A stretch of 64,000 nt of DNA, from NCBI RefSeq assembly GCF_045037415.1, contig NZ_CP173438.1; one strand, written 5' to 3'. Position numbers and translations under genes: made by a program. Shown in pieces: positions 1 through 49,999 of the stretch. Every line of letters starts with the position of its first letter. The first letter of the stretch is position 1. The notes beneath the pieces were generated by a model. The model was not told the origin of the DNA, searched no databases, and saw nothing but the letters and a program-made list of their open reading frames with translations. This DNA comes from Escherichia coli (GTDB lineage Bacteria; Pseudomonadota; Gammaproteobacteria; Enterobacterales; Enterobacteriaceae).

Positions 1-530
<530 letters not shown>

Positions 531-595: not shown

Positions 596-2187
<1,592 letters not shown>

Positions 2188-2195
2188 AGGTTTCT

Positions 2196-2789
2196 ATGAC
2201 TTCTCTGTATTTAGCTTCCGGTTCTCCGCGTCGTCAGGAGTTACTTGCGCAACTTGGCGTGACCTTTGAACGTATTGTTACGGGCATTGAGGAGCAGCGT
2301 CAGCCGCAGGAGAGCGCGCAGCAGTATGTTGTGCGTCTGGCGCGCGAGAAAGCACAGGCGGGTGTCGCGCAAACGGCGCAGGATCTCCCGGTGCTGGGTG
2401 CGGATACTATCGTTATCCTGAATGGAGAAGTGCTCGAGAAACCGCGCGACGCAGAGCATGCGGCGCAGATGTTGCGCAAATTATCGGGTCAGACCCATCA
2501 GGTGATGACGGCAGTGGCGTTGGCCGACAGCCAGCACATTCTCGATTGCCTGGTGGTCACCGATGTGACTTTCAGAACGTTAACAGACGAAGACATCGCG
2601 GGCTATGTCGCCAGCGGCGAACCGTTAGATAAAGCAGGTGCATACGGTATTCAGGGGCTGGGTGGCTGTTTTGTCAGGAAGATAAATGGCAGCTTTCACG
2701 CCGTAGTCGGCTTACCGCTGGTTGAAACGTATGAATTATTAAGTAATTTTAACGCACTGCGTGAGAAAAGGGATAAACATGACGGCTGA
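2196..2789 (+). CDS. yhdE: Maf-like nucleoside triphosphate pyrophosphatase
   Basis: 197-aa ORF starting [17 protein letters not shown] (Maf family motif); mre-operon position. Confidence 0.9.
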
Positions 2790-4248
2790 ATTGTTGGTAA
2801 ACGTAACGCCTTCGGAAACTCGAGTGGCGTATATTGATGGCGGTATTCTGCAGGAAATTCATATTGAACGTGAGGCGCGACGCGGAATAGTAGGCAATAT
2901 CTACAAGGGTCGTGTAAGTCGTGTACTTCCGGGTATGCAGGCGGCTTTTGTAGATATTGGGCTGGATAAAGCCGCGTTTCTTCATGCATCTGACATCATG
3001 CCGCACACCGAATGTGTGGCGGGTGAAGAACAAAAGCAATTCACGGTGCGCGACATCTCGGAACTGGTCCGTCAGGGGCAAGATCTGATGGTGCAGGTGG
3101 TGAAAGATCCGCTTGGCACTAAGGGTGCGCGCCTGACCACCGATATCACGCTGCCTTCTCGCTATCTGGTGTTTATGCCAGGGGCTTCTCACGTTGGGGT
3201 ATCCCAACGAATTGAAAGCGAATCAGAACGTGAACGCCTGAAAAAAGTGGTCGCAGAGTATTGCGACGAGCAGGGCGGGTTTATCATCCGTACTGCAGCG
3301 GAAGGGGTTGGCGAGGCCGAACTGGCCTCCGATGCTGCTTATCTGAAACGCGTCTGGACCAAAGTTATGGAGCGTAAAAAACGCCCGCAGACCCGTTATC
3401 AGCTGTACGGCGAACTGGCGCTGGCGCAGCGTGTTCTGCGTGATTTCGCCGACGCCGAACTCGACCGCATTCGCGTTGACTCACGCCTGACTTACGAAGC
3501 ATTGCTGGAGTTTACCTCAGAGTACATTCCCGAGATGACCAGCAAGCTGGAGCATTACACCGGACGCCAGCCGATTTTCGATCTCTTTGATGTCGAAAAC
3601 GAAATCCAGCGAGCGCTGGAACGCAAAGTAGAACTGAAATCCGGTGGTTATCTGATTATCGACCAGACCGAAGCGATGACCACCGTGGACATCAATACCG
3701 GGGCGTTTGTCGGTCATCGCAATCTGGACGACACCATTTTCAATACCAATATTGAAGCGACGCAGGCTATCGCTCGCCAGTTACGGTTGCGCAATCTGGG
3801 CGGGATTATCATTATTGATTTCATCGATATGAATAATGAAGATCACCGTCGCCGCGTGCTGCACTCGCTGGAGCAGGCGTTGAGCAAAGATCGGGTGAAA
3901 ACCAGCGTTAATGGTTTTTCGGCGCTGGGGCTGGTGGAGATGACGCGTAAACGCACCCGCGAAAGCATTGAGCACGTACTGTGTAACGAATGCCCAACCT
4001 GCCACGGTCGCGGAACGGTGAAAACCGTGGAAACGGTATGCTATGAAATCATGCGCGAGATTGTTCGTGTCCACCATGCTTACGACTCCGACCGTTTCCT
4101 GGTCTATGCTTCTCCGGCAGTAGCCGAAGCCTTGAAAGGCGAAGAGTCACACTCGCTGGCGGAAGTGGAAATTTTCGTTGGCAAACAGGTTAAAGTACAA
4201 ATTGAACCGCTCTATAACCAGGAGCAGTTTGACGTCGTAATGATGTAA
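2779..4248 (+). CDS. rng: Ribonuclease G
   Basis: ORF-track frame 2761..4248; start chosen at ATG 2779 ([13 protein letters not shown]...), giving 489 aa; RNase E/G catalytic-domain family; overlaps yhdE by 11 bp. Confidence 0.93.
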
Positions 4249-37249: not shown

Positions 37250-39586
37250 ATGAAGCAAATTCGTCTGCTGGCGCAGTATTATGTTGACCTGATGATGAAG
37301 TTAGGTCTGGTGCGCTTCTCAATGTTGCTGGCGCTGGCCCTCGTCGTTCTTGCCATTGTGGTACAAATGGCGGTAACCATGGTGCTGCATGGTCAGGTCG
37401 AAAGCATTGATGTTATTCGTTCTATCTTCTTTGGTTTGCTGATTACGCCGTGGGCGGTCTACTTTCTATCGGTGGTCGTCGAGCAACTGGAGGAGTCACG
37501 ACAACGTCTGTCACGACTGGTGCAAAAACTGGAGGAGATGCGCGAGCGCGATTTGAGCCTCAACGTTCAGTTAAAAGATAATATTGCCCAGCTAAATCAG
37601 GAAATCGCCGTTCGTGAAAAAGCGGAAGCAGAACTGCAGGAAACCTTCGGCCAACTGAAAATTGAAATCAAAGAGCGCGAAGAGACACAAATTCAGCTCG
37701 AGCAGCAATCCTCATTCTTACGTTCCTTCCTTGACGCTTCACCCGACCTGGTTTTTTATCGTAACGAAGATAAAGAGTTTTCCGGCTGTAACCGCGCGAT
37801 GGAGCTGCTGACCGGAAAAAGCGAAAAACAACTGGTTCACCTGAAACCTGCTGATGTTTACTCACCAGAAGCCGCTGCGAAAGTCATTGAAACCGATGAA
37901 AAAGTGTTCCGTCATAATGTGTCACTGACCTATGAGCAGTGGCTGGATTATCCCGACGGACGCAAAGCCTGCTTTGAAATCCGTAAAGTGCCGTACTACG
38001 ACCGCGTGGGTAAACGTCACGGTTTGATGGGCTTTGGTCGCGACATTACCGAGCGTAAGCGGTATCAGGATGCGCTTGAACGCGCCAGCCGCGACAAAAC
38101 GACGTTTATCTCCACCATCAGTCACGAATTGCGTACACCGCTGAACGGTATCGTCGGCCTGAGCCGCATTCTGCTGGATACTGAACTCACCGCCGAGCAG
38201 GAAAAATATCTCAAAACCATCCATGTTTCGGCTGTCACGCTGGGGAATATCTTCAACGATATTATCGACATGGATAAGATGGAACGGCGCAAGGTCCAGC
38301 TTGATAATCAGCCGGTTGATTTCACCAGCTTCCTTGCCGATCTGGAAAATCTCTCCGCATTGCAGGCGCAACAAAAAGGATTGCGCTTTAATCTGGAGCC
38401 GACGCTGCCATTACCGCATCAGGTCATTACCGACGGGACGCGTTTACGGCAGATCTTGTGGAACCTCATCAGTAACGCCGTCAAATTCACTCAGCAAGGC
38501 CAGGTTACCGTGCGCGTGCGCTACGATGAAGGCGATATGCTGCATTTTGAAGTGGAAGACTCTGGTATCGGCATTCCGCAGGATGAGCTGGATAAAATCT
38601 TCGCCATGTATTACCAGGTGAAAGACAGTCATGGCGGTAAACCTGCCACCGGCACCGGTATTGGTCTGGCCGTTTCTCGTCGTCTGGCGAAAAATATGGG
38701 CGGCGATATTACGGTTACCAGCGAACAGGGCAAAGGTTCAACCTTTACGTTGACGATCCACGCACCGTCGGTAGCAGAAGAGGTTGATGATGCGTTTGAT
38801 GAAGACGATATGCCTTTACCGGCGCTGAATGTGCTGCTGGTGGAAGACATTGAACTGAACGTGATTGTCGCGCGTTCTGTGCTGGAAAAATTAGGTAACA
38901 GCGTTGATGTCGCCATGACCGGCAAGGCGGCGCTGGAGATGTTTAAACCGGGCGAATACGACCTGGTATTGCTGGATATTCAGTTGCCAGATATGACCGG
39001 GCTGGATATCTCTCGTGAACTGACGAAGCGTTATCCGCGCGAGGATTTACCGCCGCTGGTGGCCTTAACCGCTAACGTGCTGAAAGACAAGCAAGAGTAC
39101 CTCAATGCTGGAATGGATGATGTGCTGAGTAAGCCGCTTTCTGTTCCGGCGCTAACCGCGATGATCAAGAAATTCTGGGATACCCAGGATGATGAGGAGA
39201 GTACGGTGACGACAGAAGAGAACAGTAAATCAGAAGCATTGCTCGATATTCCCATGCTGGAACAGTATCTCGAACTTGTAGGACCGAAGCTGATCACCGA
39301 CGGGTTAGCGGTGTTTGAGAGAATGATGCCGGGCTATGTCAGCGTGCTGGAGTCGAATCTGACGGCGCAGGATAAAAAAGGCATTGTTGAGGAAGGGCAT
39401 AAAATTAAAGGTGCGGCGGGGTCAGTGGGGTTACGCCATCTGCAACAGCTGGGTCAGCAAATTCAGTCTCCTGACCTTCCCGCCTGGGAAGATAACGTCG
39501 GTGAATGGATTGAAGAGATGAAAGAAGAGTGGCGTCACGACGTAGAAGTACTGAAAGCGTGGGTGGCAAAAGCCACTAAAAAATGA
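37250..39586 (+). CDS. arcB: Aerobic respiration control sensor kinase ArcB
   Basis: 778-aa ORF with HisKA H-box (ISTISHELRTPLNGI), receiver and HPt domains. Confidence 0.95.
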   Translation: MKQIRLLAQYYVDLMMKLGLVRFSMLLALALVVLAIVVQMAVTMVLHGQVESIDVIRSIFFGLLITPWAVYFLSVVVEQLEESRQRLSRLVQKLEEMRERDLSLNVQLKDNIAQLNQEIAVREKAEAELQETFGQLKIEIKEREETQIQLEQQSSFLRSFLDASPDLVFYRNEDKEFSGCNRAMELLTGKSEKQLVHLKPADVYSPEAAAKVIETDEKVFRHNVSLTYEQWLDYPDGRKACFEIRKVPYYDRVGKRHGLMGFGRDITERKRYQDALERASRDKTTFISTISHELRTPLNGIVGLSRILLDTELTAEQEKYLKTIHVSAVTLGNIFNDIIDMDKMERRKVQLDNQPVDFTSFLADLENLSALQAQQKGLRFNLEPTLPLPHQVITDGTRLRQILWNLISNAVKFTQQGQVTVRVRYDEGDMLHFEVEDSGIGIPQDELDKIFAMYYQVKDSHGGKPATGTGIGLAVSRRLAKNMGGDITVTSEQGKGSTFTLTIHAPSVAEEVDDAFDEDDMPLPALNVLLVEDIELNVIVARSVLEKLGNSVDVAMTGKAALEMFKPGEYDLVLLDIQLPDMTGLDISRELTKRYPREDLPPLVALTANVLKDKQEYLNAGMDDVLSKPLSVPALTAMIKKFWDTQDDEESTVTTEENSKSEALLDIPMLEQYLELVGPKLITDGLAVFERMMPGYVSVLESNLTAQDKKGIVEEGHKIKGAAGSVGLRHLQQLGQQIQSPDLPAWEDNVGEWIEEMKEEWRHDVEVLKAWVAKATKK

Positions 39587-39698
39587 CCCCGGCTAGACCG
39601 GGGTGCGCGAATACTGCGCCAACACCAGGGAAATCTTGGCTGCGCCGTAAATTATTATGATGAGTTACAAGGGCACAGCACTGTTTTTCAGGCCGCAC
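39578..39698 (-). ncRNA. arcZ: Hfq-dependent small RNA ArcZ (SraH/RyhA)
   Basis: Minus-strand sequence GUGCGGCCUGAAAAACAGUGCUGUGCCC...CCCUGGUGUUGGCGCAGUAUUCGCGCACCCCGGUCUAGCCGGGGUCAUUUUUU; terminator hairpin ccccggctagaccgggg overlaps the arcB stop codon; convergent with arcB. Confidence 0.75.
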
Positions 39699-39815
39699 GC
39701 AGTTAAGATAGCAAAACTTAAATGATTTGTTACATGAATCAGTTAAATGTGTGATGCGTAGCATTTTTATTAAAAAAATTAATGTGTTTCAGTCAATTGC
39801 GAAAGGAAGATCACA

Positions 39816-40469
39816 ATGAAGAAAATTGGCGTAATTCTGAGCGGATGCGGCGTCTATGACGGTTCTGAAATTCATGAAGCGGTATTGACGTTGTTAGCTA
39901 TTTCACGCAGCGGTGCGCAGGCGGTTTGCTTTGCACCGGATAAGCAGCAGGTTGATGTTATCAACCATTTAACTGGTGAAGCGATGACGGAAACGCGCAA
40001 TGTGCTGATTGAAGCGGCACGAATAACGCGCGGTGAAATCCGTCCTCTGGCCCAGGCCGATGCCGCTGAACTGGATGCGTTGATTGTGCCGGGGGGTTTT
40101 GGCGCGGCGAAGAATTTAAGCAATTTTGCCAGTCTTGGTAGCGAATGCACCGTTGACCGTGAATTAAAGGCGCTGGCACAAGCGATGCATCAGGCCGGAA
40201 AACCGCTTGGTTTTATGTGTATTGCACCGGCGATACTGCCGAAAATTTTCGATTTCCCGCTACGTTTGACCATCGGTACTGATATCGATACCGCAGAAGT
40301 GCTGGAAGAGATGGGCGCGGAGCATGTGCCGTGTCCTGTCGATGATATCGTGGTTGATGAAGACAATAAGATTGTCACCACCCCGGCATATATGCTGGCG
40401 CAGAACATTGCAGAAGCGGCGAGCGGCATTGATAAGCTGGTTTCCCGCGTGCTGGTTCTGGCTGAATGA
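39816..40469 (+). CDS. elbB: DJ-1/PfpI-family glyoxalase ElbB
   Basis: 217-aa [26 protein letters not shown]... Confidence 0.9.
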
Positions 40470-41194
40470 GTAAAAGCCGCTTAACGGTGTTTAGTTTCGT
40501 TCGCCGTTTTCTTCTGCGGTTAATGGTTGTCCTCGCCATTTTCTGGGGCGGGGGCATCGCGTTGTTTAGCGTTGCGCCTGTTCCTTTCTCAGCGGTAATG
40601 GTCGAGCGGCAAGTCAGCGCCTGGCTGCATGGCAATTTTCGTTACGTGGCACATTCTGACTGGGTCAGTATGGATCAAATCTCGCCGTGGATGGGACTGG
40701 CGGTGATTGCCGCAGAAGATCAGAAATTTCCTGAGCACTGGGGCTTTGATGTCGCTTCCATTGAGCAAGCCCTGGCGCACAACGAGCGCAATGAAAACCG
40801 TATTCGCGGTGCTTCAACGATTTCTCAGCAGACAGCCAAAAATCTCTTTTTATGGGATGGGCGTAGCTGGGTTCGAAAAGGGCTGGAAGCCGGATTAACG
40901 CTGGGGATAGAAACAGTCTGGAGCAAAAAGCGTATCCTGACGGTTTACCTGAATATCGCCGAATTTGGCGACGGTGTGTTTGGCGTCGAAGCTGCGGCAC
41001 AACGTTATTTCCACAAACCCGCGAGCAAACTTACCCGGTCGGAAGCTGCATTACTGGCAGCTGTATTACCTAATCCACTTCGTTTCAAAGTCTCCGCGCC
41101 ATCGGGCTATGTGCGTAGCCGTCAGGCGTGGATTTTACGGCAGATGTATCAGTTAGGCGGTGAGCCGTTTATGCAACAACACCAGCTTGATTAA
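40466..41194 (+). CDS. mtgA: Monofunctional peptidoglycan glycosyltransferase
   Basis: 242-aa ORF with N-terminal TM and transglycosylase motifs ([21 protein letters not shown]); overlaps the elbB stop. Confidence 0.9.
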
Positions 41195-41823
41195 GCTTCG
41201 CGCGAAGTGAGGGCCAGCGTTTTGCTCTCACGAGGTTGCAGATCTTTCTGCAGGGCAATAGCCAGCGCCGGTTGGGCGATAAATCGTTTCCATAACCGCT
41301 CTTGCTTACGCAGACAACACCACTTCGACCAGGTCGCCAGTGGAATCAATGTGCTTTCACCAATGTTGTCGCAGACGACGGGGATAACCTCTGACTCACT
41401 GATGCGGTGACAGAGGATATTCTGCGGCTTCAGCGACATCGTCACGATACGGTTATCCTGCAAATAACGCTTCAGCTGTTTCAGTAACTGGCGCAGTTGT
41501 GCAATGTCTTCTTCGTAACGGCATTGTTCTGCAAATTCGGTCAGCGTAATGGAAGGCTTGCCGTCGAAATCGGCAATCACATCGTAGACATAACCGGTTC
41601 CGCAATCCGTCTCAACGGTACCGTGATAGCGCGGTATTCCACTCCAGTCTTTTAACCGGCGACCAAGATGCGCGTAGTACTTTAACTCACGGCGGATCTC
41701 TTTATCGCCACCATCGCCACGATGGTAGACAATCTTGATACAGCGTTGGGCATCTTCCGGATGCGCATAACATTTCCGATGTCTTCCGGTGCCCAGGGGA
41801 CTTTGTTCAGATAAGCGAATCAT
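41191..41823 (-). CDS. yrbL: PhoP-regulated protein YrbL
   Basis: 210-aa [36 protein letters not shown]...; stop codon overlaps the mtgA stop (TTAA). Confidence 0.85.
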
Positions 41824-41873
41824 GCCATCTCCTGGAAATATTTTCTGACGATCTCCAGTATGGTCGATTAACT

Positions 41874-41890
41874 TAAACGAAATCTAAACA
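41874..41890 (-). promoter_or_regulatory. PhoP box (direct hexamer repeat) in the yrbL promoter
   Basis: Minus-strand TGTTTA-gattt-CGTTTA matches (T/G)GTTTA-N5-(T/G)GTTTA; 51-67 bp upstream of the yrbL ATG. Confidence 0.6.
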
Positions 41891-42035
41891 ATGCTTCTTA
41901 AGGTTTTCTTAAGGTTCTTCTGAAAGTAAAAAGCGCACGAAATGTACAATCGACGTTGATTGATAACGATTTCAGTACGCGCTTTTCTTATTGCCGGGGG
42001 AGCTTGAAGGGATTTGAATGTCAAAGTGATGAAGA

Positions 42036-42308
42036 TTAATCTTCATCAAAACCAGAGTTAAAGAGGGCGATAACGGCGGCCAGTGCTTCCTCTTCCTGTG
42101 GACCGGTCGCTTCAACTTCAATCTGCCGTCCTTTGGCAGAATCCAACATCAGCAGCGCAATAACGCTGTTGGCTTCAGCCTCGGTGCCTTCGTCATTACG
42201 TAACAGCACTTCAGCGTCAAAACCCTGCATTAATTCAAACAGCTTCATTGCAGGCCGGGCATGCATGCCCAGCTTGTTTGTAATTTCAACAGTTTGCTTG
42301 ACGGTCAT
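42036..42308 (-). CDS. npr: Nitrogen-PTS phosphocarrier NPr
   Basis: 90-aa HPr-like [29 protein letters not shown]. Confidence 0.9.
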
Positions 42309-43159
42309 GGTTTACGTTTTTCCAGCGTCCGATGGCGTGACTGGACGTTTTTACCGCGCGAGCGGAAGTAGTCTGCCAGTTGCTCTGCAATATACACCGA
42401 ACGGTGCTTCCCGCCGGTACAACCAATGGCGACCGTCAGGTAGCTACGGTTGTTGGTTTCCAGCATAGGTAACCATAGCTCAAGATAGCTTCGCGTCTGG
42501 TAGATAAAATTGTGTACTTCTGTGTGGCGGTCGAGGAACGCGGCGACAGGTTTATCAAGACCTGTCATTGGACGCAGTTTCGGATCCCAGTGTGGGTTCG
42601 GCAAGAAGCGCACGTCAAAGACGTAATCTGCATCGATAGGGATACCGTGTTTGAAGCCGAAAGACTCAAAGACCATGGTCAGTTCACGTTCACGTTTACC
42701 CAACAGACGGGTACGCAGCATTTCTGCCAGCTCGTGAACGGACATTTCTGAGGTATCGACAATCAGATCCGCTCGCGAACGCAGAGGCTCCAGCAAATCG
42801 CTTTCTTTGTCGATAGCACTTTCCAGCGACAGGTTTTTGCTGGAAAGCGGATGCAGTCGGCGCGTGTCACTGTAACGACGAATTAAGGTATTACGGTCGG
42901 CATCCAGGAACAGTAGTTGCGGTGAGAAAGCGTCAGGCAGGTTACTCATCGCCTGTTCGAATATTTCTGGTGACTCCGGCATATTACGAACATCAATGCT
43001 GACGGCGGCAGAAATCTCTCGATCGGCCAGAGTTCGAGCCAGATCGGGTAACAACACTACGGGAAGGTTATCCACGCAGTAAAAACCCATATCTTCCAGC
43101 GCACGCAGGGCGACAGATTTACCTGAACCTGAACGTCCGCTGACGATCATCAGTACCAT
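42305..43159 (-). CDS. rapZ: RNase adaptor protein RapZ
   Basis: 284-aa ORF with Walker A GRSGSGKS. Confidence 0.93.
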
Positions 43160-49021: not shown

Positions 49022-49999
49022 TTATTCAACGAGTATTGGCGATAACCAGTACAACATCGCCAGCCATACGATAAATCCGCCAGTTAATAATACCCCTACA
49101 CCACGGCCCGGTTGCGGGGAGCGCCGCCAGCACAGCAACGCAAAAATAATGCTCACCAGCAACATCACGCTGTAGTCACGACTGTACGCCAGTGGATCAA
49201 TCTCTCCTGGCGTTATCAGCGCGGGTAAACCCAACACGATGACAATATTAAAAATGTTTGCGCCAATGATATTTCCGACCGCAATGTCGTTTTCACCTTT
49301 GCGAACCCCTGCTATTGCGGTTGCCAGTTCCGGCAGGCTGGTTCCGATAGCAATTGCCGTCAGACCCATCGTCAACTCGCTGATGGCAAAGTAATTCGCC
49401 AGCACCGTGGCGTTATCAACTACCATCCGCGTGGCCACTGGCATAATGATCAGTGCGATGCCGAGCCATAAAAATGCGACGGGCAATCCACCTTCACGCG
49501 GCAGCTCTGCAAGCTGCTCTCTGGTCAGGCTGTCAGTCCCCTGACGTTCAGCCTGACGTGCAAGTTTAACAATGAACAGCAGCCATAGCACAGCCAGAAA
49601 GAGGAGAAAGATACCATCGCTGCGACTAAGTTGTCCGTCATAGAGTACGGAACCGGCCACCACGCTGACCAACAACATTAAGGGTAATTCACGGCGTAGA
49701 ACATCAGAATGGACGGTAAAAGGACGAACCAGCGCAGCCAGACCGAGGATCAGCAATATATTGATAATGTTTGAGCCGAGGGCTGTACCAACGGCTAAAT
49801 CGCGTTGTTCGTGCAAAGACGCGGCAAGCGAGACGATGATTTCTGGTAACGATGTACCAATACTGACCACCGTCATGCCGATGATCAACGGCGGGATGCC
49901 AAAGGTTCGGCAAAGAATAGACGCGGCAAAAACCAGGCGGTCGGCACTGTAAACGACCAAAAGTAAACCAACAATTAACAGTGCCGTAGCTAAAAGCAT
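49022..49999 (-). CDS. yrbG: CaCA-family cation antiporter-like membrane protein YrbG
   Basis: 325-aa polytopic ORF with duplicated alpha-repeat motifs (GTSLPE). Confidence 0.85.
   Translation of the reverse strand: MLLATALLIVGLLLVVYSADRLVFAASILCRTFGIPPLIIGMTVVSIGTSLPEIIVSLAASLHEQRDLAVGTALGSNIINILLILGLAALVRPFTVHSDVLRRELPLMLLVSVVAGSVLYDGQLSRSDGIFLLFLAVLWLLFIVKLARQAERQGTDSLTREQLAELPREGGLPVAFLWLGIALIIMPVATRMVVDNATVLANYFAISELTMGLTAIAIGTSLPELATAIAGVRKGENDIAVGNIIGANIFNIVIVLGLPALITPGEIDPLAYSRDYSVMLLVSIIFALLCWRRSPQPGRGVGVLLTGGFIVWLAMLYWLSPILVE

Follow-up and report, generated by a model that had tools for sequence, protein, structure and literature searches.

On its sequence and orthology, the segment between positions 41874 and 41890 of the 64-kb stretch of Escherichia coli DNA analysed here (the window) is the site at which PhoP binds the yrbL promoter; it has already been characterised, and this strain carries it in a common allelic form. 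Very probably the box is where PhoP activates a sigma-70 promoter of class II ('architecture I') that depends on this activator. The window belongs to the E. coli chromosome and has the gene order arcB-elbB-mtgA-yrbL-npr-rapZ-ptsN-hpf-rpoN; the annotated neighbours of the box are mtgA, yrbL ('PhoP regulatory network protein YrbL'), npr and rapZ, as is also the case on the K-12 map. The 1.3 kb surrounding the box was matched by 5,425 of 5,426 complete E. coli genomes and was 100% identical in several human isolates. The ArcZ sRNA lies between arcB and elbB (39591..39698, minus strand; Rfam RF00081, 120.8 bits). The features of the promoter region are listed in Table 1.

Table 1. Positions in the window, strand and conservation of the features of the yrbL promoter region. 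Conservation is the mean major-base frequency in the promoter alignment (18 sequences).
Feature	Position	Strand	Conservation	Basis or remark
Long imperfect hairpin followed by a U run	41928..41987	-		distal to npr; -25.8 kcal/mol, z = -3.4
20-bp block TTGTACATTTCGTGCGCTTT	41930..41949	-	0.88	consensus TTGTACATTYnGTGCkCTTT; conservation equal to that of the PhoP and PmrA boxes
PmrA/BasR box CTTAAG-AAAAC-CTTAAG	41897..41913	. (CTTAAG is palindromic)	0.87	6 nt upstream of the PhoP box
Gap between PmrA/BasR box and PhoP box, 6 nt	41896..41891	-		sequence
PhoP box TGTTTA-GATTT-CGTTTA	41890..41885, 41884..41880, 41879..41874	-	0.82	sequence, matrix, literature orthology
Gap between PhoP box and CATACT, 11 nt	41873..41863	-		sequence
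-10 hexamer CATACT	41857..41862	-	0.95	same hexamer listed for Salmonella yrbL (Table 2, PMC3335776)
yrbL leader, 33 nt	41856..41824	-		includes AGGAG; sequence
Probable transcription start zone	41849..41854	-		from sequence and Salmonella data
Shine-Dalgarno AGGAG	41829..41833	-		5 nt before the yrbL ATG; sequence
yrbL start codon ATG	41823..41821	-		sequence
yrbL CDS	41191..41823	-		210 aa, Pfam PF10707 YrbL-PhoP_reg, protein-kinase-like; gene under control of the box
Spacers			0.46-0.60	

The reverse complement of 41874..41890 reads TGTTTA-GATTT-CGTTTA, confirming the direct repeat on the yrbL-sense strand claimed in a preliminary description of this DNA. Its upstream distance of 51-67 nt from the A of the yrbL start codon (41823) likewise agrees with that description. 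The PhoP half-site consensus (T/G)GTTTA has been broadened to (C/T/G)GTTTA in footprinted sites (PMC3335776), and the box is a direct repeat of the broadened consensus with a 5-nt spacer. From the strict form KGTTTA-N5-KGTTTA it is one base off (C at 41879), and matches with one mismatch are not rare, two being found in the window against 0.94 expected. The GTTTA-N6-GTTTA core is exact and occurs once in the window (0.08 expected); at least one occurrence was found in 7 of 100 shuffles.

A PhoP matrix was derived from 37 DNase-footprinted Salmonella boxes, with yrbL excluded (Table 1, Zwir et al. 2012, PMC3335776). The matrix scan, a check proposed in the preliminary description, placed the box first among about 128,000 positions in 64 kb with 20.9 bits, compared with at most 18.8 for the 37 training boxes and 16.2 for the next match in the window. 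None of 200 Markov-1 simulated windows reached 20.9 bits (simulated maxima: mean 14.9, sd 1.4). Since the repeat holds the top rank and scores above both the training maximum and all 200 simulations, it is far beyond what chance would produce. The intergenic region contains no further match among the top 12 of the window, indicating a single box. The second-best match, CTGTTAATTGTTGGTTTAC (49963..49981, minus strand, 16.2 bits), falls within the 5' end of a 325-aa open reading frame (49022..49999) and was rejected as a PhoP site on account of its coding, non-promoter position and a score near the chance maximum.

The box covers the -35 position and ends 11 nt before CATACT. Two hexamers stand at the -35 distance, AGATTT with a 17-nt spacer and TAGATT with an 18-nt spacer; both are poor matches to TTGACA, and a sigma-70 consensus scan of 41700..42150 found no promoter. 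Because of these poor hexamers and the lack of a sigma-70 consensus match, the box is taken to occupy the -35 position of a promoter that has no usable -35, and its earlier description as a '-35 replacement' is upheld. The arrangement agrees with class II/architecture I in all respects considered: a single box, orientation in the direction of transcription, 11-12 nt to the -10, a poor -35 and conservation in orthologous promoters. The Salmonella start mapped with S1, 2 nt beyond the -10, would fall at position 41854, and a start at the usual distance of 6-7 nt at 41850/41849. A Dam site (GATC, 41850..41853) lies within the presumed start-site zone, and a Dcm site (CCAGG, 41831..41835) overlaps the yrbL Shine-Dalgarno sequence; in a dcm mutant yrbL was among the five most significantly up-expressed genes (PMC11741368).

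Sequence, matrix rank, geometry, orthology and conservation were observed here, and PhoP binding, the PhoP- and Mg2+-dependent start and PmrA repression are taken from published work on other alleles of this promoter. In Salmonella, the yrbL box TCGTTTAGGTTTTGTTTAA has the direct orientation and is separated by 11 nt from the -10 CATACT, with a -35 TAGGTT that has 4 mismatches and an 18-nt spacer, and with a leader of 32 nt; the box was footprinted, a single S1-mapped start was seen only in the wild type at low Mg2+, and the promoter was assigned to architecture I with class II activation predicted (PMC3335776). The Shigella flexneri yrbL box is tTGTTTAggtttTGTTTAa; the promoter fragment was shifted by PhoP-P in EMSA, and mutation of phoPQ brought yrbL mRNA down to 0.02-fold (Lin et al. 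2018, PMC5775216). When PhoP is induced, a yrbL reporter in E. coli goes up, giving the weakest output and the lowest PhoP sensitivity of the regulon genes tested. Judging from papers that cite them, Minagawa et al. 2003 and Zwir et al. 2005 reportedly describe the PhoP box of E. coli yrbL. Perez 2009 does not mention yrbL.

The closest known system is the yrbL box of K-12 and Shigella, which shares locus, position, strand and flanks with that of the window, the -10 and leader being identical; it differs in reading TGTTTA-GGTTT-TGTTTA. The Salmonella promoter likewise has a single direct box 11 nt before CATACT, an unusable -35 and an upstream PmrA box, but the leader sequence is different and strain 14028s has a C in the upstream half-site (CGTTTA-GGTTT-TGTTTA). 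The Salmonella genomes compared here carry CGTTTA-GGTTT-TATTTA, unlike the published 14028s second half-site TGTTTA. The mgtA and phoP promoters also have a direct hexamer repeat with a 5-nt spacer over the -35 region and class II activation, which at mgtA is independent of the alpha-CTD (PMC3335776). Their boxes are 12 nt from the -10 compared with 11 nt at yrbL, and yrbL differs further in having a PmrA/BasR operator 6 nt upstream and in giving the weakest output of the regulon.

Conservation was analyzed in loci from Escherichia species, Citrobacter, Salmonella, Siccibacter, Superficieibacter, Pluralibacter, an Erwinia-labelled genome and Cedecea, together with a non-syntenic paralogue. Twenty promoters from 6 genera were aligned, including those of the window, K-12 and O157, and conservation was calculated on 18 of them, the near-identical K-12 and O157 rows being left out. 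The PhoP repeat, the 11-nt gap and CATACT are kept in 18 of the 20 orthologous promoters, and the alignment shows four conserved islands against diverged spacers (Table 1). The paralogue, found in an Enterobacter hormaechei assembly (60% identity, 701..1279 of the locus), is outside the npr-mtgA context and downstream of an ARAGORN 'tRNA-Stop' gene (anticodon tta, 348..424 of the locus); it retains the 20-bp block, a PhoP box (TGTTTA-ATGTC-CATTTA), a -10 hexamer and, in degenerate form, a PmrA-like repeat. In the assembly of Tannerella forsythia ATCC 43037, a fragment of E. coli YrbL (99% identity) is encoded on a 420-bp contig, most likely a contamination of that assembly.

The PmrA/BasR box fits YTTAAK-N5-YTTAAK exactly and is the sole match in the window (0.09 expected); on the plus strand the same site contains an exact 11-bp tandem, TTCTTAAGGTT twice, at 41895..41916. 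It matches the consensus of the PmrA/BasR boxes of pmrD and yrbL, and, whereas the PmrA boxes of arn and eptA are activating, that of yrbL is reported to be a repressor site. According to PMC3335776 and papers citing the original work, PmrA binds the E. coli yrbL promoter and represses it, with the same predicted for Salmonella, and PmrA and PhoP are described as forming a 'bi-fan' on yrbL. A RegulonDB-derived annotation gives BasR and PhoP as the regulators of yrbL, and in iron-adapted E. coli B yrbL is down whenever basR, eptA and arn are up. Mg2+/PhoPQ control of yrbL in this strain, as proposed in the preliminary description, is supported insofar as the box is the orthologue of a published PhoP-dependent yrbL box with the same geometry; since a PmrA/BasR repressor box, missed in that description, lies adjacent, Mg2+/PhoPQ is not the sole input.

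ChIP and expression data in K-12 MG1655 and CFT073 name yrbL as a direct target of Fur. A scan for the Fur box (GATAATGATAATCATTATC) of 41760..42060 gave 11/19 at best, a level reached 352 times in the window. Given this reported direct control by Fur and an E. coli reporter that is the weakest and least PhoP-sensitive of the regulon, PhoP is not the whole story of yrbL. The npr stop codon lies within a perfect 22-bp palindrome, TGATGAAGATTAATCTTCATCA (42027..42048); each of its halves is 7/9 like a Fur half-site, but the spacing is 9-2-9.

The fourth conserved island is the 20-bp block, whose spacing is rigid. The PmrA box is 21-22 nt away, and in every Escherichia, Citrobacter and Salmonella sequence the distance to the yrbL ATG is 106-107 nt, whereas the npr stop may be anything between 75 and 182 nt away. 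The block travels with the yrbL paralogue, which lies beside the tRNA-like gene and not beside npr. In E. coli proper, to which the hairpin at 41928..41987 is specific, the block forms the 3' arm of this hairpin, which is probably the terminator of the rpoN operon there. Other species use a separate npr terminator, so terminator function cannot account for the conservation of the block; this, together with the variable distance to npr and the fixed distance to the ATG, led us to reject it as a mere terminator arm. It was also rejected as a known RNA, since a search of 39000..43000 with Rfam covariance models (E <= 1) returned ArcZ only and left the block unmatched, and as a repeated or regulon-wide motif, the block being present in a single copy per genome and GTAC-N5-GTGC not being enriched in the window. 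The block strings had no match in the searchable literature.

By eye, the block shows partial, tentative resemblances to binding motifs. Its spacing fits a sigma-54 -24/-12 element, with TG instead of GG and, in Siccibacter, C at -24; the first half alone fits the RstA box; and the Fis core GnnYRnnnnnYRnnC, which is very degenerate, fits in most species. The marbox, CRP, OmpR, CpxR and NtrC sites and an upstream sigma-70 promoter (for which there is no conserved -35) were likewise compared by eye. Its conservation equal to that of the two boxes, its fixed spacing and its carriage with the paralogue to a non-syntenic locus lead us to suggest, tentatively, that the block may be the operator of a third regulator and the yrbL promoter a three-element module, not the two-element one described. 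Such a regulator might be what acts directly on yrbL in the reported responses to Fur/iron or growth phase, or else an architectural protein, for example Fis.

Compared with K-12, the window has A for G at 41883 and C for T at 41879, and the two are identical from 41878 to the ATG (55 nt). Exact 50-nt searches of the 5,426 complete E. coli genomes found the window allele (TGTTTA-GATTT-CGTTTA, 20.9 bits) in 1,193 genomes (22%), the K-12 allele (TGTTTA-GGTTT-TGTTTA, 22.5 bits) in 3,318 (61%) and an O157-type allele (TGTTTA-GGTTT-CGTTTA, 20.3 bits) in 845 (16%); about 40 had no intact 50-nt promoter match. The Salmonella yrbL box scores 21.6 bits on the same matrix. Being present in 1,193 genomes, the window allele is not a recent lesion. 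In E. coli 2009C-3133 an IS1A (2546..3400 of its locus) lies between the PhoP box and the -10, at window position 41861/41862, with a 9-bp target duplication (AATCGACCA) and the box moved about 0.8 kb from the core promoter; judged by its position, the insertion would be a natural uncoupling mutant. E. coli S931B has an IS1X4 just past the npr stop codon (window 42009..42016), upstream of the hairpin and of the yrbL promoter module.

The two substitutions in this PhoP site (A in place of G in the spacer; C in place of T at the start of the promoter-proximal half-site) might measurably alter its output, either through a lower affinity for PhoP or through a change of TAGGTT to TAGATT that could raise PhoP-independent basal expression. 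Such an effect would agree with the confinement of both differences to the 17-bp box, the 55 nt downstream being identical to K-12, with the lower matrix score relative to K-12 and with the segregation of three alleles in E. coli; the -35-like hexamer at 18-nt spacing, which is TAGGTT in the Salmonella table, is TAGATT in the window, one base nearer TTGACA. However, the motif is least constrained at these two positions, C, T or G being found there in footprinted boxes (CGTTTA half-sites were footprinted in Salmonella at yrbL, slyB, rstA and virK; PMC3335776), and other genera also carry C at the same position. The window box still scores above every other footprinted PhoP box, and TAGATT is still just a 3/6 match. 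We consider a measurable effect unlikely, although a quantitative difference between alleles, for example by way of TAGATT, is possible; the allele with A in the spacer and CGTTTA as second half-site is expected to be functional and to work like the others.

It is very improbable that the repeat is a chance occurrence or a relic and that yrbL is driven by another regulator or promoter, such as Fur or the conserved upstream block. The frequency of one-mismatch consensus matches in 64 kb, the Fur ChIP and expression data and the presence of a further conserved element upstream would be in keeping with it, but the box has the top matrix rank with no simulation as high, is orthologous to experimentally bound sites and is conserved across genera together with its spacing to the -10, and the scans gave neither an alternative sigma-70 promoter nor a Fur box better than 11/19. 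Response regulators of the OmpR/PhoB family share a direct-repeat architecture of about 10-11 bp. On that basis another member of the family could be the main user of the box, with PhoP secondary, but the PhoP-specific matrix puts the box above all known PhoP boxes and 98% of the yrbL mRNA of Shigella disappears when phoPQ alone is lost, making this extremely improbable.

PhoQ senses low Mg2+ (and also antimicrobial peptides, acid pH and osmotic upshift) and phosphorylates PhoP; with the box as the PhoP site of a class II promoter, a PhoP-P dimer would bind both hexamers head-to-tail, one helical turn apart. Since the box covers the place of the -35 and ends 11 nt from CATACT, bound PhoP would stand in for the missing -35 contact and recruit RNA polymerase to CATACT; transcription would start a few nucleotides downstream, giving an mRNA leader of about 25-32 nt. 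PmrA/BasR on the adjacent CTTAAG repeat would repress the promoter when the Fe3+/BasSR regulon is on. Less in keeping with this mechanism are the second half-site, which falls outside the strict (T/G)GTTTA and goes with a matrix score 1.5 bits below that of K-12, and the unusually short distance of 2 nt between the proposed -10 and the Salmonella start.

These results indicate that the strain keeps the textbook PhoP/PmrA wiring of yrbL, a reporter gene for the PhoQ/PhoP regulon; the finding is correct but ordinary, already known and nothing new for PhoP biology. The existence of three common box alleles in E. coli is relevant to cross-strain yrbL reporters and to motif matrices. The 20-bp block could explain why yrbL is an outlier of its regulon, since it is bound earliest and has the lowest output, and since it is noisy and responds to iron and Fur.
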